This document shows, in pieces, positions 6,973-40,169 of a stretch of DNA of 64,000 nucleotides. The stretch lies in the IMG/VR virus record IMGVR_UViG_3300021963_000022. One strand, 5' to 3'. Position 1 is the stretch's first letter; each line of letters begins with the position of its first letter. The notes beneath the pieces are model-generated. The model had not been told where the DNA came from. It saw only the letters and a program-made list of their open reading frames with translations, and made no database searches. The DNA is from a virus (Duplodnaviria > Caudoviricetes). The position numbers and the translations under genes were made by a program.

Positions 6973-7340
6973 TGATAAAAAGTATTCAGACTAATGGTCC
7001 GTTCTTAAGTGTAGCAGGTGGCTATCCATCTGCTACATATATCAGTAATGGTAGTGGACCAGGTGTAGGTAATATGCGATATAACCCCAACAGTCAAAAC
7101 ATTGAAGTATTTGATGGCAGTATTTGGGTTATTATGCAATCTAGTAATGCTTATATTAGTTTAGACCATGAAGCAGTTATATTGTTAGAATGGGTACGTA
7201 AGAAGCGTGATGAGGATCTTGAAGTAGAACGATTAGCAGAAACTAATTCAACTATCAAGGACCTTGTAAATCAAGTTAAAGAAAAACAAGAACAAATTCG
7301 TATTGTTCAAGCACTCGTAAAAGAAGAAGTAAAAGTTTAA
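6972..7340 (+). CDS. Hypothetical protein, paralog of 6238..6972
   Basis: MRYNPNSQNIEVFDGSIW...LLEWVRKK. Confidence 0.7.
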   Translation: MIKSIQTNGPFLSVAGGYPSATYISNGSGPGVGNMRYNPNSQNIEVFDGSIWVIMQSSNAYISLDHEAVILLEWVRKKRDEDLEVERLAETNSTIKDLVNQVKEKQEQIRIVQALVKEEVKV

Positions 7341-8896
7341 TGGAACAAGTAAATCTATCAAATCATCACAAAGATGATTGGGCGTTATTCCTACCAGCAG
7401 TCAGTAGCTTCTATATCTCTGGCTTAGGTAAGCAACGTAAAGGTGAAGAGTATTTTGAACAATCTCGTATACCTGCAGGCTTTAACAATGATGTAGAAAA
7501 ACTAAACTTTCTTAATAGCAAAGAAGGTCTCTATTATTATAAATGGGGCTTGTACTCTGCTGGTCATGCTAACTTAGATACTACTAAAGACGATCCTAGT
7601 GAATCAATCATTAGAGAACGTGAAGCTGGTACATTCATGTTGGGCGACTCTGGTGGATTTCAAATTCTTAAAGGTCAATGGCCGGCTGATTGGAAAGATC
7701 CTAACTGTCCTAAAGCTTTAGAAAAACGTCAAATTGTTTTGAAGTGGATGGATACATACATGGACTATGGTATGTGTTTAGATGTACCTAGTCAATCATT
7801 CTTAAACAAACCTGCTATCAAACTTCATGGCATTCATAACATCGAAGAAGCTATTACTGCTACACATATTAATAACGAATACTTTATTAACAATCGTTCG
7901 GGTAAGTGTAAGTTCTTAAATGTATTGCAAGGTACTACACATACTGAAAGTGATTCATGGTACAACGAAATGAAAAAGTATTGTGATCCAAACATCTATC
8001 CAGACAATCACTTTAATGGTTGGGCGTTTGGTGGCCAGAATAAAATTGATGTTGACTTGATGTTACGTAGATTTGTTGATATTGTATATGACGGATTGTT
8101 ACAAGAAGGTAAACATGATTTGGTTCACTGTTTGGGTGTATCAATCTTAGAGTATGCTGTATTGTTTACTGATATTCAAAAAGCTATTCGTAAGTATCAT
8201 AACCCAAGTTTGAAGATTACGTTTGATTGTGCAAGCCCATTCTTTAGTGCGGCCAAAGGACTTGCTTACTTTAATACAAACATTGAACATAATCAGAAGT
8301 GGTCATATCAAATGGAAAAGACTGCTGAGAAGAAGTCTTATGCTACTGATAATCGGACGTTTATTGATGCTGTTTTGGCTGATGGTATCCATAAACAGTT
8401 TACAAATAGTCCAGTAACTGATAAACTACTTATTAGAGATTTGTGTTATAGAGGGATAGGATTCTTAGGACAACATAACAAAGAAACAAAAACTAGCTGG
8501 GATACACTTAGCTATACATTGTTACAAAGTCATAATGTCTATACTCATATCAATGCTGTGCAAGAAGCTAATCGTAGATATGAGCAAGGAATTCATCCAG
8601 CAATGGTTAGAAATAAAAATACAGGTTTAACCTTTGGTCAGTTGATTGATAGTATTTTTGCATGTAAAACTAAACAAGAAAGTTTAGATATCATTACACA
8701 GTATGAACTATTCTGGACGCAAATGCAATCAGGTAGTCAAGGATTTAGTGGTAAGAAAACTATCAATTCACGTACACAATATAAAGAACTTTTTACAGAA
8801 GAAGAATCAGATTCTGAACTATATTTGTTAGAAGATATTAAACCTAACAAATATTCTTCTAATGAAAAGTTTAACGAACTATTTACACTTGAATAA
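7340..8896 (+). CDS. dpdA: TGT-fold DNA 7-deazaguanine transglycosylase (DpdA-like)
   Basis: DSGGFQ, MCLDV, VLQG, GWAFGG, HCLG, TFDCAS and SHN occur in TGT order; no CxCxxC zinc motif seen. Confidence 0.8.
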   Translation: MEQVNLSNHHKDDWALFLPAVSSFYISGLGKQRKGEEYFEQSRIPAGFNNDVEKLNFLNSKEGLYYYKWGLYSAGHANLDTTKDDPSESIIREREAGTFMLGDSGGFQILKGQWPADWKDPNCPKALEKRQIVLKWMDTYMDYGMCLDVPSQSFLNKPAIKLHGIHNIEEAITATHINNEYFINNRSGKCKFLNVLQGTTHTESDSWYNEMKKYCDPNIYPDNHFNGWAFGGQNKIDVDLMLRRFVDIVYDGLLQEGKHDLVHCLGVSILEYAVLFTDIQKAIRKYHNPSLKITFDCASPFFSAAKGLAYFNTNIEHNQKWSYQMEKTAEKKSYATDNRTFIDAVLADGIHKQFTNSPVTDKLLIRDLCYRGIGFLGQHNKETKTSWDTLSYTLLQSHNVYTHINAVQEANRRYEQGIHPAMVRNKNTGLTFGQLIDSIFACKTKQESLDIITQYELFWTQMQSGSQGFSGKKTINSRTQYKELFTEEESDSELYLLEDIKPNKYSSNEKFNELFTLE

Positions 8897-11171: not shown

Positions 11172-11366
11172 ATGAGCGCACATAACGATATTAACACACA
11201 TTTAGAAGCATACTTGACCGAACATGAAAAGTTTGATAAAGGTAATGCGGCTGCAGGAACACGTGCCCGTAAAGCATTAGCTGAGATGGCTAAGGCAATT
11301 AAAGCACGCCGTAATGAAATTACAGCAGAAAAAGCCGCACGTGCAGAAGCAAAAGCTAAGGCTTAA
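11172..11366 (+). CDS. Histone H1-like (Hc1-type) small basic protein
   Basis: KGNAAAGTRARKAL motif. Confidence 0.7.
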   Translation: MSAHNDINTHLEAYLTEHEKFDKGNAAAGTRARKALAEMAKAIKARRNEITAEKAARAEAKAKA

Positions 11367-11599: not shown

Positions 11600-11611
11600 T
11601 AAATACTTGTG
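11594..11611 (+). promoter_or_regulatory. Late promoter motif within an 18-bp sequence repeated at 32106-32123
   Basis: AAGTGATAAATACTTGTG is identical at both sites. Confidence 0.6.
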
Positions 11612-11665
11612 TTACACAACGGTAACACAATGTCAAAACAAAACCATCACAAAGGAAGGTTATCT

Positions 11666-12352
11666 ATGAGTTATAATAAAACAAAAACAGATCCAGAGTT
11701 GGGTCAAAAAGTTCATCTACATCTATTAAATATGGGCGTAGAAACGCCAATTGACGATACAATTGATTTAGGTGATCGTAAGGATCGTATTGAAAAGATT
11801 GAAGGTCATTTCAAAGCTATTATGGAAACAATGGGTCTAGACCTAGATGATGATAGTCTTATTGAAACACCTAAACGTGTTGCCAAGATGTATGTAAATG
11901 AAATCTTTTGGGGACTTGATTATGAGGCATTCCCTAAATGTACAACAGTTAACAACAAGATGCAATACAACGAAATGGTTGTAGAGCGTAATGTTAATGT
12001 TCAATCTAACTGCGAACATCACTTTGTAGTGATTGATGGATTGGCTACTGTAGCTTATGTCCCTAAACAAAAAGTATTAGGGCTTAGTAAGATCAACCGT
12101 ATTGTAGAATATTTTAGCAAAAGGCCTCAAATACAAGAGAGGTTAACAGAGCAGATATTTCACACCTTACAGTTCATCCTTGAGACAGAAGATGTTGCAG
12201 TTATGATTGATGCACAACATTATTGTGTAAAATCACGTGGGGTAGAAGATACAGGTAGTAGTACTGTTACTTGTCGCCTAGGTGGAGGCTTTAAAACTGA
12301 TCCAGCGGCAAGACAAGAGTTCTTACAGATTGCTAATAAAGGTTGCAAATGA
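11666..12352 (+). CDS. folE: GTP cyclohydrolase I
   Basis: [38 protein letters not shown]; start after SD GGAAGG. Confidence 0.95.
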
Positions 12353-12540
12353 AATTTAAATTAGGTGATATGGTTAAAAAAGTGTCTGGTTCAGAATGGC
12401 ACGGTAAAGTAGTGGGTACATATTCAACTGAGTTAACGCCTGAAGGATATGCAGTTGAGAGTCATACAGAAAAAGGGTCTGTGCAAATATACCCCGCTAA
12501 GGCTCTTGAACTTTGGGAGATTAATAATGGGAATGCGTAA
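12349..12540 (+). CDS. R67/DfrB-type (type II, SH3-fold) dihydrofolate reductase homolog
   Basis: [33 protein letters not shown]...GSVQIYP closely follows the R67 core; ATGA overlap with folE. Confidence 0.85.
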
Positions 12541-12763
12541 ACAAATGGACTACAATAGTGTGCATCATCAAATCTATATGAGTGGTGTAGAACTTCATAG
12601 TAATTACAATGATGGATACAACCAGTTTGAAATCAAAAAAGATTTACATCGTATTAAATGGTTACTTGATGAGATTATGGCTGACGCACCTACATTTACA
12701 GGTGAAGATGAATTCTTAAAAGAACACGAACAAACCAAGATGTGGAGAACACTTTCAAAATGA
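12527..12763 (+). CDS. Hypothetical protein
   Basis: ORF track; start refined to ATG 12527. Confidence 0.55.
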
Positions 12764-13233
12764 TTTTTAATCACATTAAAGAACTAAAAGCACAAGGTAA
12801 AAAGATTGGCATTACTTTCAGTACATTTGATTTGCTTCACGCAGGTCACGTTGCTATGTTAAGTGAGGCGAAGAATCATTGCGATTATTTAATTTGTGGC
12901 TTGCAAACTGATCCAACCATTGATCGTCCTGATACAAAGAATAAACCCATTCAAAGTATTGTAGAACGACAGATCCAACTTGCGGCTTGTCGCTATGTTG
13001 ATGAGGTAGTTGTATATCAAACTGAACAGGACCTTATTGACCTACTACTTATTCTTCCCTTAGATGTTCGCATTTTGGGTGTAGAATATGCTGAAAAAGA
13101 GTTTACCGGAAGATATGAAGGTGGGGAACGAGGTATTGAACTTGTATTCAATGGTCGTGACCATAGTTTCAGTAGTTCAAGTTTAAGAAAACGGGTAGCT
13201 GATGCCCAGATTATTAACACTCTTAATAAATAA
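12760..13233 (+). CDS. Cytidylyltransferase-family nucleotidyltransferase (TagD/RfaE-like)
   Basis: TFDLLHAGH (HxGH) and RDHSFSSSSLR. Confidence 0.85.
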   Translation: MIFNHIKELKAQGKKIGITFSTFDLLHAGHVAMLSEAKNHCDYLICGLQTDPTIDRPDTKNKPIQSIVERQIQLAACRYVDEVVVYQTEQDLIDLLLILPLDVRILGVEYAEKEFTGRYEGGERGIELVFNGRDHSFSSSSLRKRVADAQIINTLNK

Positions 13234-13308: not shown

Positions 13309-13791
13309 ATGGCAAACAAAAAATTCTTTTCAACAAAAACATACAGACAAATAGGTCCTGTCGCTTATCGTCAATGGCGTGCTGACAGTCATTGTAACTT
13401 AATTCATGGCTACGCTATGAGTTTTCACTTTGAGTTTGAAGCTGATACACTAGATGCCCGCAACTGGGTAACTGACTTCGGTGGACTACGACCTCTCAAA
13501 GACAAACTAGAAGAATGGTTTGACCATACTCTACTAGTCGCACAAGATGACCCAATGCGTGAACATCTATTAGAACTAGGTCGATTGAAGCTAGCAAAGA
13601 TTACAGAAGTAGAACGTACTGGCTGTGAAGGTATTGCTGACTTCTTATACGAATATGTTAATACAATCTTTTTACCTAACTGCGGTAGTGAAGAAGCAAA
13701 GCGTGTATGGTGCTGTAGAGTAGAGGTTCGTGAGACTGATAGCAATATGGCAGGTAGAGGTGGTCATAGAGAAGATGGGGAGTTTGCATAA
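13309..13791 (+). CDS. queD: 6-carboxy-5,6,7,8-tetrahydropterin synthase
   Basis: HCNLIHGY, DFGGL, FDHTLL, TGCEGIA, VEVRET. Confidence 0.9.
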   Translation: MANKKFFSTKTYRQIGPVAYRQWRADSHCNLIHGYAMSFHFEFEADTLDARNWVTDFGGLRPLKDKLEEWFDHTLLVAQDDPMREHLLELGRLKLAKITEVERTGCEGIADFLYEYVNTIFLPNCGSEEAKRVWCCRVEVRETDSNMAGRGGHREDGEFA

Positions 13792-15022: not shown

Positions 15023-15712
15023 ATGTTTGAAACAACTTATGAAAATGGAACGTCATATCGTTCCGCAAGCGAAATCAATTCAGCAATGGGTCGTGTCTAT
15101 GGACATATGAGTCTTGCTGTTATTGTATCAATGTTTGTTAGTTACTTTGTAGGCACTAGTCCAGAGTTATTGGCATTCTTTTTTACAGGCTGGATTAAAT
15201 GGATTGTAATATTATCACCACTTGCGGCTATCTTTGGTGTTGCTATGGTACTAGCCAATAACCCAAGTAAAAGTGTAGCACAACTATGCTTACATGGTTT
15301 TGCGGCATTAATGGGATTGAGCTTTGCTACAATCTTTGCTGTATTCACTATGGGTAGTATTGTGTCAGCGTTTATGGGAGCCTCGATACTTTTTGGTGTA
15401 ATGAGTGGATATGGCTACTTTACCAAACAGAGTTTAGACAATGTTGGTAAGTTTATGTTTGTCGGCCTAATTGCTATCATTATTGCTAGTATTGTTAATA
15501 TCTTTATTGGTAGTACAGTTATGCAAATGGTTATCAGTGCATTAGCTATTATTATCTTTTTAGGACTAACTGCTTATGACACACAAAAGATCCGTGAAGA
15601 ACTTAGTATGGAAACTAGTGATAGTGCAGAAGTGCGAGGTGCATTAACATTATATATGGACTTCATTAACTTGTTTATTAACCTATTACAACTGTTTGGT
15701 GATAGAAAATAA
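15023..15712 (+). CDS. Bax inhibitor-1/YccA family membrane protein
   Basis: Multiple transmembrane helices; TAYDTQKI and ALTLYMDFINLF. Confidence 0.88.
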   Translation: MFETTYENGTSYRSASEINSAMGRVYGHMSLAVIVSMFVSYFVGTSPELLAFFFTGWIKWIVILSPLAAIFGVAMVLANNPSKSVAQLCLHGFAALMGLSFATIFAVFTMGSIVSAFMGASILFGVMSGYGYFTKQSLDNVGKFMFVGLIAIIIASIVNIFIGSTVMQMVISALAIIIFLGLTAYDTQKIREELSMETSDSAEVRGALTLYMDFINLFINLLQLFGDRK

Positions 15713-15917: not shown

Positions 15918-16124
15918 ATGAACAAAAAAATCAAAGAACTAGCAGAACAATGCGGTTTTAGACCAGGTGATAGCATATACGATAGAAATCAATCATTTGA
16001 TATTGAGAAGTTTGCAGAACTTCTAATCAGAGATTGTGCAAAGCAAGTTAATCACATTTACAAACAAGGTGGCGGCACATGGGGTGAAGTCATTCTTAAA
16101 ACTTACAATATAAAAATCAAATGA
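15918..16124 (+). CDS. Hypothetical protein, KFAxLIxxC paralog family
   Basis: DIEKFAELLIRDC. Confidence 0.6.
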   Translation: MNKKIKELAEQCGFRPGDSIYDRNQSFDIEKFAELLIRDCAKQVNHIYKQGGGTWGEVILKTYNIKIK

Positions 16125-16969
16125 GTCATTTAAAAGTAGCAGAATTATTTTATAGCATTCAAGGTGAAGGTAGATACATGGGTGTACCTTCAGTATTTCT
16201 CAGAACATTTGGCTGTAACTTCAAGTGTGCTGGATTTGGTATGCCTAAAGGTGAACTAAGTCGTGAGGTAGAAGACATTGCCGCACGTTCACATTACTAT
16301 GATGATTATAAGAAACTTCCTTTAGTTTCTACAGGTTGTGACAGTTATGCAAGTTGGGATCCTAGATTTAAACATCTTAGTCCTGTACTAACAACAGATA
16401 GTATTGTAGATAGCATTATGGATATGATTCCGCACAAACGTTGGATGGATGAGCATCTTGTTATTACAGGCGGTGAACCTTTATTAGGTTGGCAACGTGC
16501 TTATCCTGACTTGCTTTCACATGAAAAGATGAGGAGTCTTAAAGAGATTACATTTGAAACAAATGGTACTCAAGAACTAAGCCAAGACTTTTCAATATAT
16601 CTACAACAGTGGAAGATAAACAGAGAAAAAAATGCACTTACCTTTAGTGTAAGTCCTAAACTAAGCATCAGTGGTGAGAAGTGGGAAGAAGCTATTCGCC
16701 CTGAGATTATTCATCAATATGAAAGTGTTGGCTTTGTTTATCTCAAGTTTGTTATTGCTACTAAAGAGGATGCACTTGAAGCTGATGACGCAGTAAAAGA
16801 GTTTCGTAGTAGAGGATTCAGAGGTCCTGTATACTTTATGCCATGCGGTGGTGTAGAGTCTGTGTACAACTTGAATGCAAAGAATGTAGCAATTGAAGCA
16901 ATGAATCGTGGTTATCGTTACAGTGATAGACTACAAGTACCTTTATTTAAGAATGAGTGGGGTACATGA
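16121..16969 (+). CDS. queE: 7-carboxy-7-deazaguanine synthase (radical SAM)
   Basis: ELFYSIQGEG, FLRTFGCNFKC...GCDS, ITGGEP, ETNGT, SVSPK. Confidence 0.9.
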   Translation: MSHLKVAELFYSIQGEGRYMGVPSVFLRTFGCNFKCAGFGMPKGELSREVEDIAARSHYYDDYKKLPLVSTGCDSYASWDPRFKHLSPVLTTDSIVDSIMDMIPHKRWMDEHLVITGGEPLLGWQRAYPDLLSHEKMRSLKEITFETNGTQELSQDFSIYLQQWKINREKNALTFSVSPKLSISGEKWEEAIRPEIIHQYESVGFVYLKFVIATKEDALEADDAVKEFRSRGFRGPVYFMPCGGVESVYNLNAKNVAIEAMNRGYRYSDRLQVPLFKNEWGT

Positions 16970-17375: not shown

Positions 17376-17379
17376 ATAT

Positions 17380-17553
17380 ATGTATGAATTAAGATATCTT
17401 GTCCGAAAAGGTTGGGACGGACTAGAAAAAGTGTTACAATATAGAACACAAATTGAAGTAACTGATTATAGTACAACCACTGATAAAGGTAGTTTTACTA
17501 AAAAACGTGAATGGACTGAATGGAAAGATGTACCGGTAGTAAAAGATGAATGA
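17380..17553 (+). CDS. Hypothetical protein (57 aa), not in the ORF track
   Basis: MYELRYLVRKGWDGLEKVLQYR...WTEWKDVPVV, after SD GAGG; fills the gap between neighbours. Confidence 0.55.
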   Translation: MYELRYLVRKGWDGLEKVLQYRTQIEVTDYSTTTDKGSFTKKREWTEWKDVPVVKDE

Positions 17554-38050: not shown

Positions 38051-38298
38051 ATGATTTAAAATTTACAACTGCAAGCGATTATATGAATATCGGTACTAAA
38101 TTTGATGATCTAATGTATCATGCAGGACTAACCGCACAGGGTTGCTGGGATGAAATGGATGAATATGACCGTAATGCTATACAAAAGTTCGCCGAGTTGA
38201 TTGTTCGGGAATGTGTTGAAATTAACAAGCAAGAACTGTCATTTAATGCATTTGAACGATTGATGAATAAATACCAAGATCATTTCGGAGTTGAATAA
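38047..38298 (+). CDS. Hypothetical protein, KFAxLIxxC family
   Basis: IQKFAELIVREC. Confidence 0.6.
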   Translation: MNDLKFTTASDYMNIGTKFDDLMYHAGLTAQGCWDEMDEYDRNAIQKFAELIVRECVEINKQELSFNAFERLMNKYQDHFGVE

Positions 38299-38537
38299 TG
38301 GCAAGTCTATCAGAATATTTTAAGATACATCGATATCAATCAAAATACAATATCGGTGATCGTGTTACAGGCAAATGGAACAAGATTCCTTTTGTGGGTA
38401 CAGTGGGCAATGATACTGAAATCAATCAGATTGAAGGCCCTCGTATTAGTGTGCATTTAGATTTACCAATCAAGTATCAGAACAAATTTCATACAATTAT
38501 ATTTGTTAAGCATAAGGATGTTAAATATTTCAAATGA
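38298..38537 (+). CDS. Hypothetical protein (SH3-like pattern)
   Basis: IGDRVTGKWNKIPFVGTV. Confidence 0.5.
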   Translation: MASLSEYFKIHRYQSKYNIGDRVTGKWNKIPFVGTVGNDTEINQIEGPRISVHLDLPIKYQNKFHTIIFVKHKDVKYFK

Positions 38538-39379
38538 TACGACATGATTGGACACAACCATTACCAAAATCTGAGATTTTAGATTTGTCCAATAATGTAT
38601 GCTATGATAAGTTTTTAGACAGAAACGTTGAACATAGCGTATCTACCTATCCGGATGATGCAGAAGCATATAGATTGTTATCTCAATACTATAGTATTTC
38701 TCCTTATAACATAGCTATAGGTTATGGGTCATCTGATATAATACTACGTATCTTAAAATTATATCAAGGTAACTCTTTAAAGATTGTTAGCCCAACTTGG
38801 CAACTGGCTCAACTATATGCACATCATATAGGGTATGAGATTAAAGATGATGCAGATATTTTATACATAGCAAACCCTAACGGCTTGACCGGTAAAGCCT
38901 TATCTAAAAATGAAATCTTGTCCCTATTACCCACTTACAAGTTAGTCATAGTAGATGAAGCCTATTGTGATTTTAGTGATTGCTCTGTACTGGATACTTC
39001 TATTACTGCTGACAATTTAATTGTAGTGAAAACACTAAGCAAAACGATAGCATCTCCTGGATTAAGATTTGGATACTGCTTTTCTAATTCAGATATAATT
39101 AATAGAATACAAAACGTAAGACCAGGCTATGTAACTACAAATGCTACTATACCTGCTCTTAACAAACTGTTACCTCAAATAGGTATGCATATTAGTCGTA
39201 TGTTAGAAACTAGAAACTACATTGAGGATAAGTATGATGTAGTACCTTCTGAAGGAAATTATGTATTGTTTAAAACTAGATATAGTTTACCTGTTAAGAT
39301 GAAGGAAGTTAACGAGTTGTTTAGAATGTCGTTAACTGATATTGATACATTCAAGAAATTCGAAAATGAACTCAGATGA
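38534..39379 (+). CDS. PLP-dependent aminotransferase class I/II (HisC/CobD-like)
   Basis: IANPNGLTG, IVDEAY, KTLSK..ASPGLRFGY. Confidence 0.88.
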   Translation: MIRHDWTQPLPKSEILDLSNNVCYDKFLDRNVEHSVSTYPDDAEAYRLLSQYYSISPYNIAIGYGSSDIILRILKLYQGNSLKIVSPTWQLAQLYAHHIGYEIKDDADILYIANPNGLTGKALSKNEILSLLPTYKLVIVDEAYCDFSDCSVLDTSITADNLIVVKTLSKTIASPGLRFGYCFSNSDIINRIQNVRPGYVTTNATIPALNKLLPQIGMHISRMLETRNYIEDKYDVVPSEGNYVLFKTRYSLPVKMKEVNELFRMSLTDIDTFKKFENELR

Positions 39380-40169
39380 GTTAAGACGCCTGCAAGAACA
39401 GGGTGCGGTTGATTTATATTCTGCATTACGTAGTGTAGAAATCAATCCTACGGAACTATGTAACAGAGCCTGTTCCTTCTGTCCTCGAGTTGATCCTAAT
39501 ATCTACAAGAATCAGAAAAAACATATTGATCCCGATCTATGTACACTATTAGGTGAGCAGTTATCAACATTTGGGTTTGATGGCAGGATAGGCTTTGTGG
39601 GTTTTGGTGAACCATTGTTACATCCTAATATAGCAGAATGTGTGCGTAATATCAAACAATCATGCCCAACAGCTAAATGGATAGAGATTAATACAAACGG
39701 TGATTTGTTAACTAGAGACATTGCTATTGATCTTGCTAATGCAGGATGTACTACTATAACAGTTAGTATGTATGACACAGATGCTACTACTTATTTTATT
39801 GAAATGTTAGATGGTGTAAAGATAGAGCTAGTGTTAAAACATCAATATGATATTGCTAACATAAAAATAATTAATAGGATAGATATCATACAACAGACCA
39901 AGGTACTAAACATATCTCGTCCTTGTTACATCCCGTTTTATAAAATATTTGTTGATTGGAATGGAGATTACTTACTATGCCAACAAGATTGGGGCAAAAC
40001 TACCAATGTGTATAACATAAAGAATACCCCGGTCATTGACTATTGGTTATCCAAATTGACTGAGTATAGAACGAATCTATCAATGGGTAATAGGATACAA
40101 AATCCATGTGACAAATGTGACATTGACGGGACTGTATATGGGAAATCTAGTTTTGATTTGTTCGTATAA
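39366..40169 (+). CDS. Radical SAM/SPASM(twitch) domain protein
   Basis: CNRACSFC, GFGEPLLHP, INTNG, C..PF...WNGDYLLC, PCDKC. Confidence 0.9.
   Translation: MNSDELRRLQEQGAVDLYSALRSVEINPTELCNRACSFCPRVDPNIYKNQKKHIDPDLCTLLGEQLSTFGFDGRIGFVGFGEPLLHPNIAECVRNIKQSCPTAKWIEINTNGDLLTRDIAIDLANAGCTTITVSMYDTDATTYFIEMLDGVKIELVLKHQYDIANIKIINRIDIIQQTKVLNISRPCYIPFYKIFVDWNGDYLLCQQDWGKTTNVYNIKNTPVIDYWLSKLTEYRTNLSMGNRIQNPCDKCDIDGTVYGKSSFDLFV

Follow-up and report, generated by a model that had tools for sequence, protein, structure and literature searches.

DfrB dihydrofolate reductases (DHFRs) are tetramers with one shared pore; they are intrinsically trimethoprim-resistant, and their origin is unclear. In R67 DHFR, four protomers enclose a 222-symmetric pore, which NADPH and dihydrofolate (DHF) enter from opposite ends, and the rings of the two ligands stack near Q67-I68-Y69. 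Both the phosphates of NADPH and the glutamate tail of DHF are bound by K32, which lies at the pore mouths. The R67 enzyme, also named DfrB1 (PDB 1vie and 2rk1), is plasmid- and integron-borne.

The fold is also encoded by phages. Moon et al. (2020; PMC7265639) reported DfrB2-like open reading frames (ORFs) on four contigs of a Han River virome, at 67.31% identity and 83% coverage. Two phage homologues were assayed by Lemay-St-Denis et al. (2023; PMC9835603), and the phage homologue DfrB-H4 proved trimethoprim-resistant. A later study (Lemay-St-Denis et al., 2025; PMC12486381) described 20 viral homologues together with their linkage to ThyA and the absence of FolA, validated three viral enzymes and proposed an essential role of DfrB in viral dTMP production. 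In that work, which tested 148 homologues, trimethoprim resistance was obtained from 114 of 123 homologues with a predicted tetramer, VQIY was the mark of cluster I and the LHIY pore motif that of cluster II, K32 was the most conserved residue of active homologues, and the enzymes were about 100-fold less efficient than FolA. In 2026, Vibrio phage vB_ValP-R39Z was described with an R67-family DHFR that is encoded together with ThyA and RNR and was read as part of a dTMP-supply module (PMC13749740). Thus, phage DfrB and a native function of it in making dTMP for the phage have both been published before, and the original prediction for the gene described here, that phages are a reservoir of the DfrB fold, is true but had been reached before (PMC7265639, PMC9835603, PMC12486381, PMC13749740).

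Here we describe a DfrB gene in a 64-kb stretch of viral DNA (the window) whose 63-residue product is probably a type B DHFR with an accessory part in the thymidylate cycle of the phage. Like the published viral homologues of clusters I and II, which are stand-alone or embedded, it is a DfrB domain in Caudoviricetes, and its large-phage relatives have ThyA and no FolA-type DHFR. It differs from the published homologues in residing in a freshwater jumbo-phage clade, inside a FolE-QueD-QueE-DpdL region, as a cassette that is either present or absent, with thyA about 100 kb away from dfrB in relatives. The term "GTP cyclohydrolase" does not occur in the DfrB papers of Lemay-St-Denis et al., where the deazaguanine-region context is likewise unmentioned, and the deazaguanine literature makes no mention of DHFR in these clusters. 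The R39Z enzyme is similarly phage-encoded, but that phage is small and lacks deazaguanine genes near its DHFR; the two are likened by description only.

The 63-residue ORF is a DfrB homologue

The gene directly follows folE (Table 1). Its start codon (12349-12351) overlaps the folE stop codon TGA (12350-12352), and the Shine-Dalgarno-like word AAAGG just upstream may be its ribosome-binding word. Its GC content (38.5%) is close to that of the whole window (36.7%). A promoter and terminator scan returned sites no more frequently than in shuffled sequence, so operon limits were drawn from gene overlaps only.

The product passed the Pfam gathering score of PF06442 (DHFR_2) with 78 bits (cut-off, 25; E = 5e-22) over positions 24 to 75 of the 78-position profile, which makes it a member of the DfrB/R67-type DHFR family. 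A phmmer search of the PDB retrieved R67 DHFR chains (1vie, 2rk1, and others) at E of ~3e-17 in a gapless alignment of 52 residues, 33 of which were identical. This match is far beyond chance. In R67 numbering, which equals the query residue plus 21, the protein retains K32, W38, Y46, T51, S59, and S65-V66-Q67-I68-Y69 (K32 and S65-Y69 correspond to its K11 and S44-V45-Q46-I47-Y48). Eight of the nine R67 pore residues are identical, the exception being A36, replaced by serine. At the subunit interfaces, W38 and S59 are kept, whereas W45, H62, and P63 are changed to T, E, and K, respectively. The near-colinear R67 match, the retained VQIY motif, the altered W45 and H62 equivalents and the ATGA overlap with folE had all been read from the sequence in the original prediction, and the alignments and coordinates agree with it on each.

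The protein differs from R67 DHFR in lacking the 20-residue N-terminal extension, and its gene is phage-encoded, AT-rich, and without integron context. It scored 87.3 bits against the NCBIfam model NF000331 (trim_DfrB), below the curated cut-off of 137. Thus, it is a DfrB homologue but not a member of the named clinical resistance alleles. The figures reported for the Han River ORFs would fit 35 of 52 identical residues and coverage of 52 of 63 residues, and these ORFs may come from the window's clade.

Table 1. Features of the dfrB locus, in window coordinates
Feature	Position	Strand	Basis or remark
518-aa protein, possible divergent DpdA-type transglycosylase	7340..8896	+	Syntenic with the PA5oct and ACP17 modules
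Probable DpdL (proposed CDG decarboxylase), 150 aa	9311..9763	+	LxxxHRHxF signature as LGTPHRHIF; homologues in ACP17, Cellulophaga phages, and PA5oct
folE (GTP cyclohydrolase I), upstream neighbour	11666..12352	+	PF01227, E = 4e-62
AAAGG, Shine-Dalgarno-like word	12338..12342	+	Within folE 3' end, 6 nt before dfrB ATG; read from sequence
dfrB-like gene	12349..12540	+	63 aa; cluster-I type B (R67-type) DHFR homologue with VQIY, K32, and W38
ATGA, overlap of dfrB start and folE stop codons	12349..12352	+	Sequence; same in relatives L001, L008-L013, and L039
dfrB cassette body, ~172 nt in window	12351..12522	+	Missing in L138 and L153; blastn junction mapping
78-aa ORF, no family match	12527..12763	+	ATG 14 nt inside dfrB 3' end; directly after folE in dfrB-less relatives
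Cytidylyl/adenylyltransferase-like gene (RfaE domain II-like)	12760..13233	+	PF01467; phrog_7878; TIGR02199 below cut-off; ATGA overlap with 78-aa ORF
queD (6-carboxytetrahydropterin synthase family)	13309..13791	+	PF01242; phrog_2389, E = 7e-41
queE (7-carboxy-7-deazaguanine synthase family)	16121..16969	+	phrog_2076, E = 1e-53; weak radical SAM match

Predicted fold, pore residues, and selection

The fold of the family is an SH3-like five-stranded barrel of about 58 residues. The AF2 model of the monomer (pLDDT, 87.8) has five strands, and with this model as the query, the top seven Foldseek matches in the PDB were all R67 DHFR (rmsd of 0.7 to 0.8 Å, TM of 0.86 to 0.96). The protein is thus predicted to form the family barrel. 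Catalytic DfrB proteins of clusters I and II are characterised by a positively charged residue 32 and by a pore motif on strand B4, which in cluster I is VQIY (PMC12486381); judging from the alignment, the window's protein carries both. Complex prediction with four copies of the protein gave a median score of 0.01, with one run reaching 0.43, and was given no weight for or against a tetramer. By analogy with R67, the protein would form a tetramer and be catalytic.

Among 48 distinct viral relatives, K32, W38, Y46, T51, and G64-P70 were invariant, part of this invariance being due to retrieval, since EKGSVQIY was one of the search words for the loci. The dN/dS ratio among relatives was ~0.03 at a dS of ~1.15; dfrB is under strong purifying selection.

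The replacements W45T and H62E do not appear disqualifying for activity because the interfaces of active DfrB homologues are not conserved (PMC12486381) and because the probable DfrB-H4 carries Y45, E62, and K63. This protein, NVP1030O_25 of Vibrio phage 1.030.O, was matched to DfrB-H4 by context; it is 71% identical to the 63-residue protein and shares its E62 and K63.

It is conceivable that the SH3-like domain is mainly a noncatalytic module for binding or assembly, for instance, in replication or DNA-modification complexes, with DHF reduction being incidental. In the view of the authors of PMC12486381, the DfrB domain has its origin in a binding module, most homologues lie near replication and repair genes, and clusters III to V are noncatalytic. 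Many phage homologues are also fused to larger proteins, and most small DfrB-bearing phages lack ThyA. The window's copy, however, is a stand-alone domain of 63 residues with the cluster-I VQIY, K32, and W38, and the eight pore residues that it shares with R67 are invariant among relatives. Moreover, homologues of clusters I and II with a predicted tetramer are almost all catalytically active (PMC12486381). We therefore consider a mainly noncatalytic role unlikely and favour a functional DHFR.

dfrB lies in a putative deazaguanine module

The genes around dfrB look like the QueC-less FolE-QueD-QueE-DpdL route proposed for 2'-deoxy-7-deazaguanine (dDG) DNA modification. The probable DpdL was recognised by the LxxxHRHxF motif of this family (bioRxiv 10.1101/2023.04.13.536721). 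The 518-residue protein has no Pfam, NCBIfam, or PHROG match; it is 34% identical to EST35_0316 of PA5oct and weakly similar (27% over 177 residues; E = 3e-5) to a "TGT domain-containing protein" of Vibrio phage GR7B, and we tentatively regard it as DpdA-like. Profile searches of relatives found no QueC, no Pfam-recognisable TGT, and no DHPS.

Several other genes share this region. Those for two glycosyltransferases, a nucleotidyltransferase, a class II aldolase, and an epimerase are interspersed among the genes of the dDG-like locus. Within the module, on the positive strand (15023-15712), there is also a gene for a Bax-inhibitor-1 (BI-1)/YccA-family membrane protein (PF01027, 181 bits), which is placed elsewhere in four relatives (L003-L006). 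Just upstream of the folE unit, positions 11172 to 11366 of the same strand encode a 64-residue protein with a match to the chlamydial histone H1-like Hc1 (PF07432; E = 4e-13), which is kept in relatives. The 66-nt gap before folE contains a 24-nt near-perfect palindrome with nine pairs (11607-11630), which might act upstream of the folE-dfrB unit as an operator or as an RNA hairpin.

dfrB is an optional cassette

We next evaluated how constant the neighbourhood of dfrB and folE is. With the 63-residue protein as the query, 80 IMG/VR loci were found, of which L001 to L044 form the window's clade. In these loci, dfrB always lies inside the deazaguanine region, the ~17 kb that hold the module, but at one of three sites: right after folE, between queD and queE, or after the 518-residue gene. 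Re-anchoring the search on the 518-residue gene rather than on dfrB yielded 26 relatives with a locus spanning folE through queE. dfrB was present in five of these and missing from the other 21.

The dfrB-less junction could be mapped in two relatives (L138 and L153) whose QueD is 98 to 100% identical to that of the window. There, the folE stop codon directly overlaps the ATG of the 78-residue ORF, without dfrB, and the same joint (12347 to 12523) is found on one metatranscriptome contig. Since the folE stop overlaps the next gene even when dfrB is missing, the ATGA-type overlap is generic in this slot. A further relative (L144) carries at 17378-17503, between folE and the 78-residue ORF, an unrelated ORF of 41 residues that is Cys-rich and hydrophobic. 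The slot between folE and the 78-residue ORF is thus a variable cassette site. Among clade loci, the BI-1 family protein, a 63-aa ORF, and the aldolase also move within the region.

Outside the window's clade, no DfrB-bearing viral contig encoded FolE, and the cultured phages sharing module genes (PA5oct, ACP17, and Phosso) had no DfrB homologue. A conserved folE-dfrB linkage is therefore not borne out by the synteny survey, and a co-occurrence of dfrB with 7-deazaguanine pathway genes across phages is not upheld. Rather, dfrB is an optional cassette; despite its suggestive look, the adjacency to folE is incidental and implies no functional pairing. Metatranscriptomes also contained one 143-nt contig piece at ~95% identity inside dfrB, although contigs from RNA libraries cannot prove transcription, nor does a lack of coverage carry any meaning.

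A second DfrB type in the same phage lineage

The window encodes a T4-type family B DNA polymerase, a DNA ligase, ClpX, UvdE, and a 5'-3' exonuclease. Cultured phages include none that is closely related to it, folE alone matching at ~66%. The gene order of DNA polymerase, a 244-residue gene, the 518-residue gene, DpdL, and QueE is common to the window and the Pseudomonas jumbo phage PA5oct, and related IMG/VR contigs are up to 367 kb long. The stretch is present in DNA metagenomes of many studies, mostly labelled freshwater or lake water.

Two contigs related to the window (G082 and G087) lack the VQIY gene and carry a 63-residue DfrB-like ORF with the LHIY motif. This ORF scored 19 bits on PF06442, below the cut-off of 25, and shares 36% identity with the window's protein. 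Its place is directly after the DNA ligase gene, ~33 kb from the module, and its position was recorded as 1596-1787 in L178 (249095-249283 in G082 C1); it is also present in L179. VQIY-type and LHIY-type DfrB thus alternate as optional cassettes in one phage clade.

In the window, the DNA ligase gene is followed by a 79-residue ORF (38298-38537), which was considered as a hidden DfrB paralogue and rejected for want of any similarity. Also downstream of the ligase gene, at 38534-40169 on the positive strand, a class I/II aminotransferase-like gene and a radical SAM/SPASM gene are adjacent.

DHFR accompanies ThyA rather than the deazaguanine genes

In the role that we propose, four 63-residue SH3-like protomers would assemble into a tetramer with one central pore, as in R67 DHFR. 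NADPH and DHF would stack on the VQIY strands, anchored by K32, and DHF would be converted to tetrahydrofolate. DfrB would thereby recycle the DHF produced by the phage thymidylate synthase ThyA, in the role of the FolA-type "frd" enzyme of T4-like phages. The gene itself would be an accessory cassette in a shuffling-prone early region that also carries 7-deazaguanine genes, and its overlap with folE would be a product of tight gene packing. The proposed role, regeneration of tetrahydrofolate for phage thymidylate synthesis, is that of frd beside td (ThyA) in T4 and of the corresponding pair in PA5oct and Phosso. The two folds are unrelated, an SH3-like tetramer in one case and a Rossmann-like monomer in the other, and the relationship is one of nonorthologous replacement.

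No ThyA gene was found within the 64-kb window, and a ThyA partnership in the window's own genome is suggested by relatives. The complete 367-kb genome of one of them (G001) has the same module with a DfrB 85% identical to that of the window. A profile search of this genome identified exactly one DfrB, its ThyA passes the NCBIfam equivalog cut-offs, and neither a FolA-type DHFR nor ThyX was found in the complete 367 kb. In the three clade contigs that reach far enough (G001, G081, and G082), ThyA lies ~100 to 112 kb upstream of the module. A FolA-type DHFR was absent from every clade contig searched. Two genomes, G001 and G082, thus have ThyA and no DHFR other than the DfrB type; in G082, the DfrB-like gene that accompanies ThyA is the one of the LHIY type, which lies next to the DNA ligase gene and not in the module. 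In a further viral contig (L069), ThyA is directly downstream of DfrB. The ThyA profile PF00303 had no match in 30 further small related contigs, which, as fragments of 2 to 20%, are uninformative on this point.

The cultured phages with the same module show a complementary pattern. PA5oct and Phosso have ThyA and a FolA-type DHFR but no DfrB, and ACP17 has ThyX and no DHFR at all. Judged by these patterns and that of G001, DHFR of either fold goes with ThyA rather than with the deazaguanine genes. The link is not universal: five of seven complete or near-complete viral records with DfrB have no ThyA, and no DfrB of either type was found in three large fragments (G083-G085). Thus, dfrB is auxiliary and dispensable rather than essential.

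In PA5oct (L095; 167093-169724), the gene order is thyA, a gene for a hypothetical protein of 103 residues, folE, and queD, with the FolA-type DHFR ~60 kb away. Here, thyA precedes folE-queD by two genes, so an intermingling of folate-cycle and pterin genes is in any case a feature of this phage family.

Alternatives to a thymidylate-cycle DHFR

The position in an operon of pterin and deazaguanine genes had originally been taken to suggest a native role in reducing pterins or folates. Reduction of folate has held up as the best reading; a pterin or deazaguanine role deduced from the operon position has found no support, dfrB being missing from 21 of 26 modules. In such a role, the protein would be a pterin reductase of the 7-deazaguanine pathway, re-reducing, for example, oxidised 6-carboxy-dihydropterin to CPH4, or a helper of the FolE-QueD-QueE-DpdL route. 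This would explain the adjacency to folE, queD, or queE, as well as the confinement of the VQIY-type gene to the ~17-kb module region of the clade at all three of its sites, and the heterologous expression of DpdL with DpdA gave no dDG, which led the authors to allow for further enzymes (bioRxiv 10.1101/2023.04.13.536721). However, the established route from GTP through H2NTP and CPH4 to CDG needs no external pterin reductase. The module also does without dfrB in L138 and L153, in spite of their near-identical QueD, and its homologues in PA5oct, ACP17, and Phosso do so as well, while FolE and DfrB occur together in this clade only. Unrelated genes (BI-1, the 63-aa ORF, and the aldolase) hop in the same region, and the second DfrB type of the clade sits by the DNA ligase gene. 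We consider a pterin reductase unlikely. If it were true, the VQIY-type DfrB would have been recruited to keep 6-carboxy-tetrahydropterin reduced, a second native substrate for the DfrB fold, and the landing of a mobile gene three times by folE, by queD/queE, or by the DpdA-like gene would be explained.

Least probable is that the gene is kept mainly for inhibitor insensitivity, letting infection proceed when natural or synthetic antifolates block host FolA. In its favour, trimethoprim insensitivity is intrinsic to DfrB enzymes (PMC9835603, PMC12486381), the patchy occurrence of dfrB as a cassette resembles that of an accessory fitness gene, and a similar idea was raised for phage R39Z (PMC13749740). 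Against it, nothing points to an exposure to antifolates in lakes, and PMC12486381 argues against trimethoprim as the cause of DfrB evolution. The same DHFR activity would be needed, which makes this idea a variant of the thymidylate-cycle explanation.

As a probable accessory DHFR of the thymidylate cycle, the gene brings in a widespread lineage of lake phages whose only DHFR candidate beside ThyA is a cluster-I DfrB and not a FolA-type enzyme. This supports the published view that the DfrB fold natively serves folate metabolism in phages and that genes for trimethoprim-insensitive DHFR are numerous in environmental viromes. The new part is modest, namely, a freshwater jumbo-phage lineage in which DfrB genes of the VQIY and LHIY types alternate as cassettes, with one type located in a dDG-type module; it opens no new mechanism.

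A maximum-likelihood tree built from 52 columns had little resolution; in it, R67 DHFR grouped with a viral contig (L070; support, 94/90) rather than with the window's clade. The family as a whole comprises 1,626 cluster representatives at E of ≤0.001 among 1.84 billion.
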